From: an uncultured Candidatus Saccharibacteria bacterium
GTDB lineage: Bacteria; Patescibacteriota; Saccharimonadia; Saccharimonadales; Saccharimonadaceae
NCBI GenBank assembly: GCA_963525845.1
Contig: CAURKU010000001.1
Coordinates: forward strand, 193,311 to 257,310
Length of the DNA stretch: 64,000 bases
Reading direction: 5' to 3'
Each line of letters starts with the position of its first letter. Position 1 is the stretch's first letter. The translations under genes and the position numbers were made by a program. The notes under the pieces are model-generated. The model was not told the DNA's origin and searched no databases. It saw only the letters and a list, made by a program, of their open reading frames with translations. Positions 11,790 through 64,000 of the stretch are shown one piece after another.

Positions 11790-12008
11790 CTAGCTTTTAC
11801 GAGCTTTAACTTCGTTACGACCAAGGTTTTTCTTGGTTTCGGTGTAGGTCGCGTGCTGACGAGCGATTGGGTCGTATTTACGCAGCGTCAACCTACCCTG
11901 GCCCTTAGTGGTGCGGTTTTGTGTATTGATTGTCGTGTAGTAAGTTCGGTGCTTGCTTTTGTTGCTCACCAAAGCGATCAACTTGCGTTTCGTATTCTTC
12001 TTTGCCAT
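11790..12008 (-). CDS. rpmG: 50S ribosomal protein L33, Cys-free type with C-terminal extension
   Basis: YYTT..N, LTLRKYDP, H..Y.E.K pattern. Confidence 0.9.
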   Translation of the reverse strand: MAKKNTKRKLIALVSNKSKHRTYYTTINTQNRTTKGQGRLTLRKYDPIARQHATYTETKKNLGRNEVKARKS

Positions 12009-25766: not shown

Positions 25767-25907
25767 TTAACCCTGCCTTTGCTTGTTCTTAGGTTTTTTC
25801 TTGTTGATGACGCGCAGTCTGGCGATGCGCTTGCCCTTTTTACGGCCAACGCGGCGCACGAGTACGTCATCGGGACTGATTTTTCTAACACTTGCACGAA
25901 CTTTCAT
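25767..25907 (-). CDS. rpmJ: 50S ribosomal protein L36, Cys-free, 46 aa with basic insertion (below ORF-track cutoff)
   Basis: Hand translation [46 protein letters not shown]; located between infA and rpsM. Confidence 0.93.
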
Positions 25908-35595: not shown

Positions 35596-35865
35596 TTACC
35601 AACTACTCTTTGTTATGCCTGGGATTTCACCCTTGGCTGCTTTTTCGCGGAAATTGATGCGGCTCAGGCCGAACTGGCGCATGTAACCACGTGGACGACC
35701 GGAAATGCTGTCGCGGTTCTTGTGCCGAGTTGGGCTCGAGTTGCGAGGCAGCTTCTGCAAACCGTCGAGGTCGCCAAGTTCTTTGAGCTCAGCGCGCTTC
35801 GCAGCGTATTTTGCGATCATCTTCAGACGCTTTTTGTCGCGAGCGACCATTGATTTCTTAGCCAT
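35596..35865 (-). CDS. rpsN: 30S ribosomal protein S14, long Zn-independent form
   Basis: 89 aa, [20 protein letters not shown], no Cys. Confidence 0.97.
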
Positions 35866-54954: not shown

Positions 54955-55650
54955 TTAGTTCTCAGAATTTTCTTGGCAATAGCCCAGTAGGTCATCCCAG
55001 CTAACTCCAGCATTAGCCTCGTGCCTCATTCTGTATGCGTCACACTCTTGCAGTTTGTGGTTAGCATTGCGCAGAAAAATACCGAGTCCAGTCCTGGCAA
55101 GACCCTGCAGTCTGATATTCGGTACTGCCTCGTCCAGCCAGTCTTCAATTGTTTCAGTTAGCCCTGGGTCAATCAATGCCAGGCCGTAGCTAGAGTATTC
55201 AACCTGTCCCCTCGCTGCTTCGTGTAGCCTCACAAGATCATCAAACTCGGGCTTCGGGCTCTTTGGAGGCTCGAATCCACAACCTTTAAGCCCCTGTGGA
55301 ACGAGCTCCTTGGGTGCTATATTAGCCTCAAGCAATTGTTCTCGACACAGACCAAGTCCGATGGTCGCACCAATGTTCGTGACCACCATTACCTCCTCAA
55401 CCCCATACGTTGGTTCACCAGTAGACAGATCACGTGGGTTCAGAAGAACTCCCAGACCGCCAGCCACCCTATGAATCATTTCTTGAGCACTGTGTCGCTG
55501 TGAAATATCTTCAAGGATATGCTGAAGCCCACTTTGCCCGGGATGGGTCGCCTCAAAAGCTGCTATATCCTCCTGCATTCGCTGGGCGGCACCAGTAAAA
55601 TCAATATAGCAATTATTCTTTCGGTCGGGTGAGAATTGTTGTTCATTCAT
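54955..55650 (-). CDS. Hypothetical protein inserted between rpsG and fusA
   Basis: 231-aa ORF, TGATATGAT 6 nt upstream. Confidence 0.7.
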   Translation of the reverse strand: MNEQQFSPDRKNNCYIDFTGAAQRMQEDIAAFEATHPGQSGLQHILEDISQRHSAQEMIHRVAGGLGVLLNPRDLSTGEPTYGVEEVMVVTNIGATIGLGLCREQLLEANIAPKELVPQGLKGCGFEPPKSPKPEFDDLVRLHEAARGQVEYSSYGLALIDPGLTETIEDWLDEAVPNIRLQGLARTGLGIFLRNANHKLQECDAYRMRHEANAGVSWDDLLGYCQENSEN

Positions 55651-57857: not shown

Positions 57858-60800
57858 TTAGATCTCTGAGAATTCTTCAGCCAATTCTTCAGTGTTATCT
57901 TCAGCTAACTCTTCGTCTTCTTCGACCACACCGGTTCCTACTGGGATCTTGCGGCCGATGATGACGTTTTCTTTGAGGCCATGCAAGTGGTCAGCGCGAC
58001 CAGATACGGCAGCGTTGATCAGCACACGAGTGGTGTCTTGGAAGGACGCAGCAGATAGCCATGAGTCGCTCCAGATGGACACCTTGGTGATACCGAGCAG
58101 CAGCTGAGTGTAGCTGATGAGGTTCTTACCCTCAGTAGCCAGTTGCTTGTTGGTGTTCACTACCGCAGCCTTGGAGACGATGTCGCCAGTCACAAAGTCG
58201 CTATCACCCGCATCTTCGATTTGGACGCGACTGAACATCTGGCGAACGATGATCTCCAGGTGCTTGTCGGCCACGTCTTGACCCTGAGCAGCGTAAATGC
58301 GCAGCACTTCGTTGATGATGTAGCGCTGAGCAGCCTCAACACCCTTCAGACGCATCAAATCATGCAGGTTCAATGAACCAGCTGTCAAGCGGTCGCCGGC
58401 CTCGACGACGTCATTAGCTTTGACAACCAACTGCATGTTGCCTGGGATTTCGTAACGAGCTGGTGCACCAGCCTCAGCAGCGATCACCAAGGTGTCTTCT
58501 GCTGTCTCAACCACGCCGTCAAATGGCGCGATCAGCGGGCGAGTGTCGCCTTCGCCAGTTGCCAGCACATCGCCAGCTTTGACGCTTGAACCGGCCTTGA
58601 CCACGATGGTTCGGCCGTCTAGCGGCAAGCGCTCAACTTTACCAGATTCTGGGGTAACCTGGACTATATACTTTTTGCCATCTTCCCAAACATCAACTAA
58701 CCCGGCAATTTCCGTAACAAACGCCTGACCCTTTGGTGTACGCGCCTCGAACAATTCTTCAACACGCGGCAGACCCTGGGTGATGTCACCACCGGCCACA
58801 CCGGAGTTGTGGAAAGTACGCAAGGTCAGCTGAGTACCTGGCTCACCGACTGACTGAGCAGCGATGACACCGACTGGCTGATGATTACCGACCAATTTAC
58901 CAGTTGACATATCAACACCGTAGCTGCGCTGCGGGATGCCGTTGAGGTTGTTGGTTGACAGGACTGATTGAATCTTGACGCTCTGGATGCTTTCATCATC
59001 ATCAATCGAGTCAGCGATTTCCCGAGTGATCAATTCGTCCTTGTTGACATGACCTGGAATCGTCTCAGCGGCGTAACGACCAGCCAAGCGGTTCGAGAAG
59101 TCGATCATCGTTTCCTCAGTTTCTGAACGGTAGATTGCGTAACCTTCGTCGTCACCTTCAACATCCTCAACCGTGAAGACGTCCTGTGCCACGTCGACCA
59201 AACGACGAGTCAGGTAGCCTGAGTCAGCGGTCTTCAGCGCGGTGTCGATCAAACCCTTACGCGCACCACGGGTTGCCACAAAGGCCTCAAGACTGGACAG
59301 ACCACCGGTGTAGGAGCTACGGATTGGCAGCTCAATCTCGTGGTTGGTTGCGTCCATCTGGATACCGATCATGGCGCTCGCAAGCTTCACGTTGGAAATA
59401 TCACCACGAGCACCAGAGTTGACCATCATGGAAATACTGGTGTCCATGTGCGCCAATTGATCCTTCAAGAACGCAGTGATCTTATTGTCGACGTTTCGCC
59501 ACGCGCTGACTGTCAAGCTGTAGCGCTCTTCCTCAGTGATCAAACCTTGGTCGAACTGCTCAGAAATCAAAGCCGCCTTGGCGTCGCCCTCAGCCACAAA
59601 CTCAGGAATTTCGTCGAAGTGCACGTAGTCGGTCATACCGGTTGATACGGCCGCAGTTGTCGCGAAGCGGAAGGCTTGACCCTTCATGCGGTCAGCGATT
59701 TTAGCGGTTTCTTCAGCACCGTATTTGTTGAAGATTTGTGCCAATACTTTCTTCAGCTGCTTCTTGGTCTGAACGTTATTGTCGTACGGGAAGTCCTCTG
59801 GCAGGATCTCGTTGAAGAAGACGCGGCCCAAAGTTGTCTGACGTACCTTGCCCTTAGCAAAAATCCGGATTGGTGTTTGCAAATGAATGTCACCCTTGTC
59901 GTACGCCAGCTCTGCTTCATAAACCGAGCTAAACGCCTTGATATTGTCAGTCTGCGCCTGTGGCTTGTCGTACGTCAGGTAGTAGTTACCGAGCACGATG
60001 TCCTGCGAAATGTGCAAGACTGGCGCACCGTCAGCAGGCTTCAGTAAGTTAGCAGTTGCGCTCATCAAATTGCGGGCTTCAGCTTGCGCTTCTTTAGACA
60101 GCGGCAAGTGAACAGCCATCTGGTCACCGTCAAAGTCAGCGTTAAATCCAGCACAGACCAGTGGGTGAAGCTGAATCGCCTTGCCTTCAACCAAAACTGG
60201 CTGGAAGGATTGGATTGACAAACGGTGAAGTGACGGAGCACGGTTCAACAGAACGTATTTTCCTGCAATCACTGCGTCCAATGCGTCCCAAACGACTGCT
60301 TCGCCTGATTCGATCAACCGTGTCGCTGAGCGGATGTTGTGAGCAAATTCACCCTTGATCAGCCAGCTGATGACGAATGGTTTGAACAGTTCAAGTGCCA
60401 TTTGCTTTGGCAAGCCACACTGGTGAATCTTTAGTTTTGGACCAACGACGATAACTGAACGTCCGGAGTAGTCTACGCGCTTACCGAGCAGGTTTTGACG
60501 GAAGCGTCCCTGCTTACCCTTTAGCATGTCAGAAATTGACTTCAGGCGGCGGCGACCACCAGTCGAGCTGACGGCGCGACCACCACGAGCAGCAGCATTG
60601 TCGATCAATGCGTCAACGGCCTCCTGCAACATACGCTTTTCATTGCGCTGAATCACTTCTGGCGCATTGAGCTCAACCAATTTCTTCAAACGATTGTTAC
60701 GGTTGATGATGCGACGGTACAAGTCGTTCAAGTCTGAGGTAGCAAATCGACCACCACTGAGGGCGACCATCGGACGGAGGTCCGGTGGGATGACTGGCAA

Positions 60801-61694
60801 TACACTCAGCGTCAAGCTACTTGGCTTGATGCCAGCGGCGTGCATACTCTCCAGCATCTTCAGGCGCTTGAGAATTTTCTTCTCGCGCTGGCCCTTGGCA
60901 CTCTCAGCTTCTTCAGTCAATTCCGCAATCAGCTGCGGCAAGTCAATCTCATCCAGCAATGTCTTCAACGCTGAAGCACCCATGCCAACTTCAATGAGCT
61001 CATCGTATTCTTCTGGCAAGTTACGATAGTCAGTTTCAGACAACAGCGCGCCCTTGTTCAAACTGTCAAGCTGTGCCTTGCGCGTAGTGTATTTATCGTT
61101 CAATTCTTCAACTTCACGACTCTGTTCCTTAGCCAAAGCCTTGATGTCAGTGCCATCTTCTTCTGCCATTTTTTCGTATCGAATCTTGATGGCAGCACGA
61201 CCAGCTTCTGTCTCAGCTTCCAAGTCTGCAAGATATTGATCACGGGTTGCTTCATCAACCCTCAAAATGACATAGGTCGCAAAGTAAGCTACTCGCTCCA
61301 AGTTACGAACCGTCATGCCGAGCAATTGACTCATGGCGCTTGGCGTACCGCGCATAAACCAGATGTGCGCGACTGGCGCTGCTAACTGGATGTGACCCAT
61401 GCGCTCACGGCGAACGATTGACTTGGTGACGAGTTCACCATTCTTATCAACCGCCGCTTCGCGTGAACGAACACCTTTTAGTTTTGAGTCGTGTGGATTG
61501 ATGTCCTTGACCGGACCGAAAATTCGTTCACAGAACAAACCGTCACGCTCTGGCTTTTGAGTACGATAGTTGATCGTTTCTGGCTTAGTAACTTCACCGT
61601 GACTCCATTTCAGGATATCTTCTGGGCTGGCAACCACTAAGCGTACTGCATCAAAATCGCTAATGCCAGTAGCATTGAATGCAAATTGCGCCAT
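57858..61694 (-). CDS. rpoC: RNA polymerase beta-prime subunit, Zn ligands absent
   Basis: NADFDGDQM, GKRVDYSGRS, GEPGTQLT; SD AGGAGG favours ATG 61694. Confidence 0.99.
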   Translation of the reverse strand: MAQFAFNATGISDFDAVRLVVASPEDILKWSHGEVTKPETINYRTQKPERDGLFCERIFGPVKDINPHDSKLKGVRSREAAVDKNGELVTKSIVRRERMGHIQLAAPVAHIWFMRGTPSAMSQLLGMTVRNLERVAYFATYVILRVDEATRDQYLADLEAETEAGRAAIKIRYEKMAEEDGTDIKALAKEQSREVEELNDKYTTRKAQLDSLNKGALLSETDYRNLPEEYDELIEVGMGASALKTLLDEIDLPQLIAELTEEAESAKGQREKKILKRLKMLESMHAAGIKPSSLTLSVLPVIPPDLRPMVALSGGRFATSDLNDLYRRIINRNNRLKKLVELNAPEVIQRNEKRMLQEAVDALIDNAAARGGRAVSSTGGRRRLKSISDMLKGKQGRFRQNLLGKRVDYSGRSVIVVGPKLKIHQCGLPKQMALELFKPFVISWLIKGEFAHNIRSATRLIESGEAVVWDALDAVIAGKYVLLNRAPSLHRLSIQSFQPVLVEGKAIQLHPLVCAGFNADFDGDQMAVHLPLSKEAQAEARNLMSATANLLKPADGAPVLHISQDIVLGNYYLTYDKPQAQTDNIKAFSSVYEAELAYDKGDIHLQTPIRIFAKGKVRQTTLGRVFFNEILPEDFPYDNNVQTKKQLKKVLAQIFNKYGAEETAKIADRMKGQAFRFATTAAVSTGMTDYVHFDEIPEFVAEGDAKAALISEQFDQGLITEEERYSLTVSAWRNVDNKITAFLKDQLAHMDTSISMMVNSGARGDISNVKLASAMIGIQMDATNHEIELPIRSSYTGGLSSLEAFVATRGARKGLIDTALKTADSGYLTRRLVDVAQDVFTVEDVEGDDEGYAIYRSETEETMIDFSNRLAGRYAAETIPGHVNKDELITREIADSIDDDESIQSVKIQSVLSTNNLNGIPQRSYGVDMSTGKLVGNHQPVGVIAAQSVGEPGTQLTLRTFHNSGVAGGDITQGLPRVEELFEARTPKGQAFVTEIAGLVDVWEDGKKYIVQVTPESGKVERLPLDGRTIVVKAGSSVKAGDVLATGEGDTRPLIAPFDGVVETAEDTLVIAAEAGAPARYEIPGNMQLVVKANDVVEAGDRLTAGSLNLHDLMRLKGVEAAQRYIINEVLRIYAAQGQDVADKHLEIIVRQMFSRVQIEDAGDSDFVTGDIVSKAAVVNTNKQLATEGKNLISYTQLLLGITKVSIWSDSWLSAASFQDTTRVLINAAVSGRADHLHGLKENVIIGRKIPVGTGVVEEDEELAEDNTEELAEEFSEI

Positions 61695-61695
61695 C

Positions 61696-64000
61696 TTACG
61701 CATCCTCCTTTATTTCTTCTACTTCGTCAATGTCTTGTACGCTCATGCCCCCTTCGATTTCTCCAATATCATCGGATTCATCCAAGAAAGTTTCTGCTTC
61801 TTCGTCTTCAGACGTTACCGCAGGCGTGGTTTTGTCTTCAGGTCCACTGGACGCGATCACGTGCTCAGCGTCAACAACAGCTTCATCATCCACCAAGTCA
61901 ACCTTCAGACCCAATCCCTGGAGTTCCTTAACCAACACGTTGAAGGATTCTGGGAGTTTTGGACCGACGATTGGCTCGTCTTTGATGATTGATTCATACG
62001 CCTTGGCACGGCCATAGACGTCGTCAGACTTGATGGTCAGCATTTCCTGCAAGGTTGCTGCCGCACCATAGGCTTCCAGTGCCCAGACCTCCATCTCACC
62101 GAAGCGCTGACCACCATTCTGTGCTTTACCACCGAGCGGCTGCTGAGTGACCATGGTGTATGGACCAGTTGAGCGGGCGTGAATCTTGTCAGACACCATG
62201 TGGTGCAATTTGATCATGTGCATCACACCGACCGTGGTACGCTCTTCAAAGGCTTCACCGGTCCGACCATCAAACAATTGACTCTTACCGTCGCGTGCTA
62301 GCCCTGCTTTTTCTAGTTCATCAGAAATTGTTGCTGATGGCACACCGTTAAATGATGGAGTTGCGACGCGGTAGCCTAGCGCTCGTGCTGCCATACCAAG
62401 GTGCGTTTCAAACAACTGACCGAGGTTCATACGGCTTGGCACACCGAGTGGGTTCAAAATTACGTCAATCGGCGTACCGTCTTCCATGAATGGCATGTCT
62501 TCAACTGGCAGAACCTTTGCCACCACACCCTTGTTACCGTGACGACCAGCCATCTTGTCACCAACACCAATCTTGCGGAGCTGGGCTACAAAGATTTGAA
62601 TCTGCATCAACACACCAGCCTTCAAGTCGTGGCCATTCTCACGGCTAAAGATCTTGACGCCAACGACTTTACCGCCACCAGCATTATTCATGCGCTGTGA
62701 GGTGTCGCGAACGTCCTTGGCTTTTTCACCGAAAATGGCGCGGAGCAAGCGCTCCTCGGAACTGAGTTCCTGCTCACCCTTTGGTGTAATCTTACCGACC
62801 AAAACGTCACCGGCCTTGACTTCAGAACCAATTTGGACAATACCGTTTTCGTCCAAGTGACGCAGGCTTTCCTCCGACACATTCGGAATGTCGCGGGTAA
62901 CAATTTCCGGACCCAGCTTGGTCTCACGAACTTCAACATTGTAATCCTTAATGTTGATGGACGTCAGTGTGTCGTCTTGTACCAATCGGTTGGACAAAAT
63001 TACCGCGTCTTCCATATTGTAGCCACCCCATGGCATAAAGGCCACCAACAGGTTGCGTCCCAGTGCAATTTCACCTTCCGCAACTGAAGCGCCTTCGATC
63101 AGGACATCACCCTGCTTCACCTTATCGCCGCGCTTGATGCGAACTTTTTGGTTGTAGCAGCGGTCGTCATTGTTTTTGACGAAATGGCGGAGTTCATATA
63201 CTTTGACGCCATCGCTGTATTTGACATGAATTTCATTTGCATCAGCTTTGACTACTTCACCGTCACCTGACGCCAAGGTTAAGTGACCACTGTTTGCAGC
63301 AATGGACTTTTCGACGCCCGTACCAACAGTTGCTGGCTCCGGTGTGAGCAGCGGTACTGCCTGGCGTTGCATGTTTGAACCAGTCAAGCTACGGTCAATA
63401 CGGTTCTTTTCGATGAACGGCACCAGCGCAGCGGTTGACCCCAAAATCTGCTTGTGTGCTGCGTCCATGTAGGTAACTTGATCAGCATCAACCTGAGATG
63501 GCTGCATGTTGTTACGAGCTGACACACGCTCATCACGGAACGTACCGTCTTCGTTCAACACAGCACCAGCATCAGCGATCACCTCAGCTGCTTCCTGCGC
63601 CGCGTCCAGATAGACAACATCGTCTGTCACGCGACCATTCACAACCTTCAAGTATGGCGTTTCGATGAAGCCATATTCATTGACCCGTGCGTAGGTGGCG
63701 AGGTTTAGCACCAAACCAACATTGGCACCTTCTGGCGTCTCCACCGAACAGATACGACCATAGTGCGTTGGGTGAGCGTCACGAACGTCAAAACCAGCGC
63801 GCTCACGGCTCAAACCACCAGGACCCATTGAACTCAAACGACGCTTGTGGCTCAATTCAGACAGTGGGTTAACCTCGTCCATCAGCTGACTGAGCTGTGA
63901 GCTAGTGAAGAATTCACGAACTGCCGCCACCACTGGGCGAGCATTGATCAGCTGGCTCGGTGTTACGCCTTCCATGTCTGCCACGCTCATGCGGTCCATG
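61696..64000 (-). CDS. rpoB: RNA polymerase beta subunit (5' part outside the window)
   Basis: [29 protein letters not shown]. Confidence 0.99.

Follow-up and report, generated by a model that had tools for sequence, protein, structure and literature searches.

The β′ subunit of bacterial RNA polymerase (RNAP), encoded by rpoC, contains two zinc sites, one in the N-terminal zinc-binding domain (ZBD; site 1) and one between the bridge helix and the trigger loop (site 2), and these sites have so far been treated as fixed features of the bacterial enzyme. The second zinc site is required for RNAP assembly in Escherichia coli. Here we describe an rpoC gene in which all eight ligand cysteines are replaced. 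It lies in a stretch of 64,000 nucleotides (hereafter the window) of contig CAURKU010000001.1, assembly GCA_963525845.1, from an uncultured Candidatus Saccharibacteria bacterium of the order Saccharimonadales, and a first-pass annotation made from the DNA letters had drawn attention to it. Saccharibacteria, including Nanosynbacter, are tiny episymbiotic bacteria. At a probability of roughly 80%, we read the gene as encoding the sole functional β′ of a Nanosynbacter-like Saccharibacterium, in which side-chain packing would replace both zinc sites and no structural zinc would be bound.

Canonical β′ subunits (E. coli, Mycobacterium tuberculosis, Bacillus subtilis, Clostridioides difficile and Thermus) share with this protein the overall architecture, the NADFDGD motif, the rpoB-rpoC operon and the length of the ZBD, and differ from it in their eight ligand cysteines and at about ten further ZBD positions where the substitutions seen here are specific to the clade. 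A comparable change is familiar from the Cys-less (C-) forms of ribosomal proteins L31, L33, L36 and S14, which follow the same logic: the Cys4 ribbon of an abundant protein gives way to a metal-free version. The C- ribosomal paralogs are zinc-starvation back-ups under Zur control, whereas in the source genome the Cys-less form of L31, L33 and L36 is the only copy found of each and would therefore be constitutive, not a regulated back-up. RNAP departs further from the pairs of Cys-containing (C+) and C- proteins in that there is no rpoC paralog and the change was made in place. DksA2 is also similar, as a component of the transcription machinery in which a Cys4 zinc site is replaced and which is linked to zinc limitation; its occurrence in Zur regulons is described in one report (PMC11672702). 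DksA2 is, however, an accessory and regulated paralog, while here a catalytic core subunit is changed in its sole copy. The first-pass annotation had left it to the literature whether such a β′ had been described before; full-text searching, with most subscription journals outside its reach, found no published report of a β′ without zinc ligands.

Ligand positions at the two zinc sites

The rpoC product (P0001) contains the five Rpb1 Pfam domains in order (PF04997, PF00623, PF04983, PF05000 and PF04998), all above the curated cut-offs (E values from 4e-70 to 2e-7), and matches β′ chains in the PDB with E = 0 and 45 to 52% identity to solved chains. The enclosing open frame of 1281 codons (57858-61703, minus strand) offers an alternative ATG at 61703, which would add MRK to the N-terminus and overlap the end of rpoB, the gene directly upstream in an rpoB-rpoC operon. 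The gene is single-copy in the source genome (G000; 755,686 bases in two contigs, 99.93% complete), and the closest named relatives of its product, at 94% identity, are Candidatus Nanosynbacter and Candidatus Saccharibacteria oral taxon 488. P0001 has only three cysteines (residues 55, 426 and 514). They lie within FCE, QCGLP and LVCAG, exactly those that the first-pass annotation had listed as remaining, and all three peptides quoted there were found in the translation of the minus strand at the position given for rpoC in Table 1.

At site 1, HMMER aligns residues 14 to 165 of P0001 without a gap to Clostridioides-type and mycobacterial chains and sets P67, D69, V82 and N85 opposite their CxC...CxxC ligands. 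The E. coli chain is in register (E. coli numbering is that of P0001 plus 3), and the four positions are those of C70, C72, C85 and C88. The N-terminal Cys4 motif, near-universal yet not required for membership of the RpoC family, is thus absent from P0001, and compared with Cys4 homologs the ZBD has identical length, with no insertion or deletion. We then compared a non-redundant set (sequences more than 90% identical removed) of 40 sequences from the order and 31 from sister orders of the class. Within the order the first knuckle is P67 (39/40), H68 (36/40; N in two, Y in two) and D69 (40/40), and the second is V82 (37/40), D83 (40/40), K84 (39/40) and N85 (33/40; K in six, E in one). About ten further ZBD positions are fixed differently in the order and its sisters: W65I, E/Q66N, Y68H, G70A/S/N, Y77S, K78R, G/D79E, V/I80A, V81A and V87E. 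The basic, DNA/RNA-facing residues are kept: K71 is invariant in 71/71 sequences, and K71 and K84 are the equivalents of E. coli K74 and K87, which, according to one study (10.1101/2020.01.02.893370), contact the non-template strand of promoter spacer DNA. The same study reports that a four-Cys-to-Ser mutant of the E. coli ZBD has lower σ28-dependent and weak −35 promoter transcription, and that no E. coli strain lacking the ZBD could be obtained.

Mean column conservation in the order is 0.94 for the ZBD (residues 55-100) versus 0.78 for residues 20-960, and by the same measure the sister orders give 0.90 versus 0.74. The exact length, the kept lysines and this high conservation argue that the ZBD is rebuilt, not decayed. 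In a plausible course of events, two pairs would take the place of the metal core: the hydrophobic P67/V82, filling the former metal cavity, and a polar pair formed by D69 and N85 (K85 in six members); some ten neighboring positions would have changed in step with the ligands, after which purifying selection would have frozen the new sequence, and the domain may still work at the RNA-exit and upstream-DNA face. Polar or salt-bridge substitutes had been proposed in the first-pass annotation. The pairing of D69 with N85 or K85 agrees with that proposal, but the hydrophobic pair at site 1 does not.

At site 2, HMMER places E846, T914, P921 and S924 opposite the four cysteines (C5 to C8) in five aligned chains, one of which shares its alignment register with the E. 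coli chain 10ma_J; one MAFFT run sets C5 opposite G847 instead of E846, neither of which is Cys. Together with site 1, these alignments bear out the replacement of all eight ligands. The accompanying claim that local spacing is roughly preserved holds for the gapless site 1 and for C6-C7-C8, but not for the C5-C6 stretch, which is about six residues shorter than in the reference chains. In the order, only E/D, T/S/A, P/S and S occur as replacement residues at the four positions. Leftover cysteines are found at ligand 1 (counted in the G847 column of that MAFFT run) in 4/40 and at ligand 2 (residue 914) in 13/40 sequences, with 0/40 each at ligands 3 (921) and 4 (924). The stretch from 847 to 913 inside the site has a conservation of 0.645 in the order versus 0.58 in the sister orders. 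The last two ligands would have been lost in the ancestor of the order, and the one or two leftover site-2 cysteines in some families would be there because the first two ligands decayed later, in some lineages.

With both zinc sites replaced, the polymerase should carry no structural zinc, and its catalytic Mg site is untouched. The substitutions are confirmed, and the zinc-free reading put forward in the first-pass annotation is well supported by the sequence, in which neither site has a Cys within reach and no ligand set is conserved.

Distribution in the order, the class and other bacteria

Two samples were compared across the class. The first comprised 29 loci of the order, of which 19 belong to the genus of the source genome and 10 to further families; the second contributed another 28 genomes of the order, plus 32 that represent 19 families elsewhere in the class. 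One locus lacks the N-terminus (L021) and another the site-2 end (L020), leaving 56 readable loci (28 + 28) for each site. Cysteines were found in 0/56 at site 1, where P/D/V/N-type residues stand instead, and in 0/56 at the last two site-2 ligands (C7 and C8). The sister orders have all eight cysteines in 32/32 genomes sampled. A comparison of the kind that the first-pass annotation had put forward as a check thus separates the order from its sampled sisters completely at site 1. The ligand-less state (Zn-less in what follows) is also present in hundreds of 90%-identity protein clusters, and the order that shows it includes cultivated relatives of Nanosynbacter.

A FastTree phylogeny of 83 RpoC sequences (822 columns, with residues 60-95 and 838-929 masked) placed the 44 Zn-less sequences, and no others, in a single clade (support 0.996). 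Of these, 40 are the sequences from the order and four are deep representatives of 50%-identity clusters (P0122-P0125). As to the sister families of the order, the RpoC tree and the character patterns disagree. The simplest history suggested by these data is a single loss at the order's base, and the change in RNAP would then have happened once.

In a scan with one genome per species, 80/80 further loci named Saccharibacteria, Saccharimonadales, Saccharimonas or Nanosynbacter had no Cys at site 1, the four positions reading PDVN in 63, PDIN in 15, PDVS in one and PDVK in one; the Zn-less motif was itself among the search patterns of this biased scan, and the 80 loci therefore show breadth, not frequency. 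Two loci labeled as a Dongiaceae bacterium (L253) and a Candidatus Dormiibacterota bacterium (L306) have Zn-less rpoC N-termini of the Saccharibacteria type, at 80 to 85% identity, and are probably mis-binned contigs.

A wider survey took the best 150 of 28,765 matches among 50%-identity cluster representatives. An automated read found all eight cysteines in 86 of these 150, and 27 of the 64 discordant rows were inspected by eye; outside this inspection are rows without the N-terminus or the site-2 region (P0195, P0230, P0247, P0249, P0155, P0157, P0172, P0159, P0222, P0265 and P0266) and most rows read as xCCC. A true absence of site 1 among the 27 inspected rows was confined to P0122-P0125, which belong to the Zn-less clade. 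Apparent site-1 losses in P0182, P0187, P0233, P0248, P0255 and others arose where insertions had shifted the alignment, and their cysteines are present; P0134, a fragment truncated at its N-terminus, has no Cys in site 2. In P0163, P0167, P0189 and P0210, site 1 is kept and site 2 is truly lost. Relatives of P0167 belong to the class Opitutae of the Verrucomicrobiota (Opitutales, Puniceicoccales, Rubellicoccus peritrichatus, Cerasicoccus arenae and Ereboglobus luteus). In 119/119 of these relatives (P0289-P0407) the four ZBD cysteines are kept, while the two site-2 segments hold no Cys in 86, one in 30 and two in three. The Opitutae β′ resembles that of the Saccharibacteria in its loss of site 2, in similar replacements (P/S at C7 and A/S at C8) and in the leftover cysteines in the first site-2 segment of some members. 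It differs in retaining the Cys4 of the ZBD and should therefore still bind one zinc. The Opitutae loss is independent of the loss in Saccharibacteria. Judged from these alignments, loss of site 2 is recurrent in bacteria, and loss of the ZBD site, hence of both sites, appears confined to this order among the samples.

Zinc ribbons in other proteins of the genome and class

Ribosomal proteins of the source genome encoded in the window, L36, S14 and L33, are Cys-less as well (Table 1). For L36, the 30 loci compared were the best Pfam scorers of that search: 15/15 from the order are Cys-less (KKISPDD...VINK) and 15/15 from sister orders have CxxC...C..H. The L36 of the source genome (37-44 bits) has diverged further, with an insertion, than the 38-residue Cys-less form of the rest of the order (60-74 bits). 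L31, 118 residues without Cys in the source genome, has no Cys in 19/19 sequences (18 genomes) of the order and four in 30/30 sister loci; the search pattern did not resolve L31 of one genome (G061). L33 is without Cys in 10/10 loci of the order. Its sister counterparts have three or four cysteines in 15 loci, one in family f27 (four loci) and none in family f28 (one locus). Open frames for S14 in the order have 89 to 169 codons (long form), while the sisters have the long form in seven families and a short one (61-88 codons) in the rest. A 48-residue candidate for L32 had no Pfam match at E ≤ 1e-4.

The zinc ribbon of the primase DnaG is Cys-less in 9/9 loci of the order and in 7/7 loci of the sister families f29, f30, f33, f34, f37 and f39; the CHC2 ligands are kept in 4/4 loci of the sister families f27, f28, f31 and f36. 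In the source genome the DnaG ribbon (G000 C1:677711-677983) has no CHC2 ligand left ('LSPF...WHDFSSG'; class loci L224-L243). A 605-residue protein with CxxC motifs, considered as an alternative DnaG, belongs to the β-lactamase family instead. The zinc finger of LigA (PF03119) was not found in the source genome and was found in 8/17 genomes of the order and 14/43 of the sister orders, so that its loss is patchy and repeated. A candidate NAD-dependent ligase of 717 residues on the minus strand of C1 in the source genome has no Cys after residue 168.

Taken across the class, the sequences indicate that loss of structural zinc is recurrent in abundant housekeeping proteins and still going on, and that it has gone furthest in this order, the sole one with RNAP, L31 and L36 affected. 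Since L31, L33, L36, S14 and DnaG are Cys-less in the same order, we read the change in RNAP as belonging to a process in which abundant information-processing proteins lost their structural zinc step by step.

Table 1. Coordinates of features in the 64,000-nucleotide window
Feature	Position	Strand	Basis and details
rpoC (RNA polymerase β′)	57858..61694	-	1278 residues plus stop; open reading frame and translation (P0001)
Zn-less ZBD, residues 55-100: CERIFGPVKDINPHDSKLKGVRSREAAVDKNGELVTKSIVRRERMG	61395..61532	-	aligns without gaps to the Cys4 ZBD of solved chains
First knuckle P67-H68-D69 replacing C-x-C	61488..61496	-	HMMER alignment, coordinates checked; codons P67 61494-61496, D69 61488-61490
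Second knuckle V82-D83-K84-N85 replacing C-D-K/R-C	61440..61451	-	HMMER alignment, coordinates checked; codons V82 61449-61451, N85 61440-61442
Catalytic Mg-binding motif NADFDGD, intact, residues 518-524	60123..60143	-	translation, coordinates checked
E846 at the first ligand position of site 2	59157..59159	-	HMMER alignment, coordinates checked
T914...P921..S924 at ligand positions 2-4 of site 2	58923..58955	-	HMMER alignment, coordinates checked; codons T914 58953-58955, P921 58932-58934, S924 58923-58925
rpoB, 3′ part, running past the window edge	61696..63999	-	Rpb2 domains 3, 45, 6 and 7
rpmG, ribosomal protein L33, 72 residues, no Cys	11790..12008	-	PF00471
rpmJ, ribosomal protein L36, 46 residues, no Cys	25767..25907	-	PF00444, 44 bits
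CopA-like heavy-metal P-type ATPase, 748 residues, and Penicillinase_R/CopY-type repressor, 155 residues	26405..29131	-	HMA domain in the ATPase
rpsN, ribosomal protein S14, long form, 89 residues, no Cys	35596..35865	-	open reading frame and domain scan
Open reading frame, 231 residues, 5 Cys	54958..55650	-	no Pfam family
Open reading frame P0288, 315 residues	56819..57763	-	no Pfam match

Competing explanations, zinc supply and neighboring genes

A metal site rebuilt from other ligands (H68, D69, D83 and N85 at site 1; E846 with hydroxyls at site 2), through which the enzyme would still bind metal, is in our judgment improbable. Zinc sites made of His and Asp occur in many proteins, and the invariance of D69 and D83 (40/40) with H68 in 36/40 order members fits such a site. 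Two of the four site-1 ligand positions, however, are now P67 and V82 in 39/40 and 37/40 sequences, where no metal coordination is possible; position 68 has N or Y instead of His in 4/40, and position 85 has K or E instead of Asn in 7/40, where a Lys suggests a salt bridge to D69, not metal. D83 is no new ligand, since the Cys4 sister orders have it in 31/31 sequences as well, and site 2 supplies only the few residue types listed above. A tetrahedral site restored by His and Asp, together with stoichiometric Zn, had been named by the first-pass annotation as the finding that would overturn its reading, and on the sequence side no replacement His/Asp tetrad is conserved. Degenerative loss, in which relaxed selection and drift in a symbiont of small population size and reduced genome would leave the ZBD as a decaying remnant whose roles in termination control and partner binding are no longer needed, is only a little less unlikely. 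The Rho_RNA_bind domain was found in 0/121 genomes of the class, so that one ZBD-related process may be missing, site 2 looks decay-like with its variable replacements and leftover cysteines, and the zinc-site losses of DnaG, LigA and S14 have a patchy distribution in the class. The ZBD nevertheless shows the opposite of decay, with no indels, conservation well above that of the whole protein, and K71 and K84 kept, and residues 847-913 are no less conserved than in the sister orders. Rho is equally missing from sister orders that keep all eight cysteines; its absence therefore does not explain the loss, and we rejected it as the lost partner behind it. An artefact (an error of sequencing, assembly or alignment, a pseudogene or a contaminating fragment) has a negligible probability: the frame is open over its 1281 codons, the gene is the sole rpoC of a nearly complete two-contig genome, the HMMER alignment is gapless, and chance or sequencing error is excluded because 57 other genomes of the order share the Zn-less state, as do the many clusters mentioned above. 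The only hint found in its favor is an interrupted rpoC in one same-genus relative (G005:C1:339180-339548), where a TGA falls near residues 105-123; the gene is either truly broken there or wrongly assembled.

We return to a polymerase whose zinc sites are replaced by side-chain packing, as part of a possible wider economy of zinc, and to the observations that weigh against it. The invariant D69 and D83 and the common H68 would, from the sequence, allow a weak carboxylate/imidazole metal site. Modeling of residues 1-420 of P0001 with AlphaFold2 (77-row alignment) gave the ZBD predicted local distance difference test (pLDDT) scores of 56 to 66, with a hairpin at residues 80-90. A Zn-containing Cys4 sister sequence modeled as a control with the same 77 rows scored equally low (50-64), which argues that low ZBD pLDDT is generic, and the modeling is uninformative on fold retention either way; Foldseek did no more than confirm the β′ N-terminal fold, with a template modeling (TM) score of about 0.58. 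The reading as zinc economy fits only in part. The seven sister families with long-form S14 and the six with Cys-less DnaG (7/7 loci) keep RNAP zinc, L33 is already Cys-poor in the sister families f27 and f28, and the LigA zinc finger is present in nearly half of the order's genomes (8/17). These mismatches with the RNAP pattern mean that the losses are recurrent and not strictly coupled, and a strict order-wide switch of all zinc proteins was rejected, as S14, DnaG, L33 and LigA all deviate. The source genome, with an overall Cys content of 0.74%, also keeps Cys-rich modules (PriA, RadA, UvrA, DnaJ, NrdR, NrdD, a ComF-like protein and a Top1-type ribbon), and the cell is therefore not zinc-free. 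The imperfect coupling and the many remaining zinc modules give some weight to avoidance of oxidation and to drift as readings of the cause.

For the selective cause, chronic zinc scarcity leads, and we give it an even chance, because ribosomes and RNAP are the most abundant carriers of zinc ribbons and no classical high-affinity importer was found: no ZnuA-family binding protein or ZIP transporter was found in the source genome. Drift with compensation in small populations is less likely, and avoidance of oxidation-sensitive zinc-thiolate sites is the least likely of these causes. A single FUR-family gene is present in the source genome (C1:165010-165354). C+ and C- forms do not coexist there: rpoC, L36, L31 and L33 each occur once, all Cys-less. 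The broadest version of the proposal, in which the entire order would run RNAP, L31, L33, L36, S14 and DnaG without structural zinc through stepwise removal, with a re-engineered ZBD, is tentative, at somewhat short of even odds; the removal would be driven by chronic zinc scarcity or oxidative exposure in episymbiotic life. If true, the enzyme would be the first multisubunit RNAP to be naturally free of zinc, and its ZBD would fold without metal.

A natural lineage with both sites replaced would mark the metal as a dispensable scaffold, and it would show how evolution has solved the folding of a zinc ribbon without zinc, through about 14 coordinated substitutions, in a group with cultivated members. 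The finding also bears on the ligands and factors that dock on the ZBD. With the linked losses in ribosomal proteins and primase, it becomes testable whether zinc supply or zinc-thiolate oxidation can reshape the gene-expression machinery of a symbiont, and we consider the wider pattern of zinc-site loss a more interesting lead than RNAP alone.

Other genes of the window lie close to those described here. P0288, between rpoC and rpsL, was considered as a compensating RNAP subunit and rejected, as it was found in only 2/121 genomes of the class and not in the sampled genome of the same genus. The open reading frame of 231 residues (Table 1) lies between rpsG and fusA. The CopA-like ATPase and a repressor of the Penicillinase_R/CopY type (155 residues, 7 Cys) are both encoded between infA and secY, inside the string of ribosomal-protein genes.

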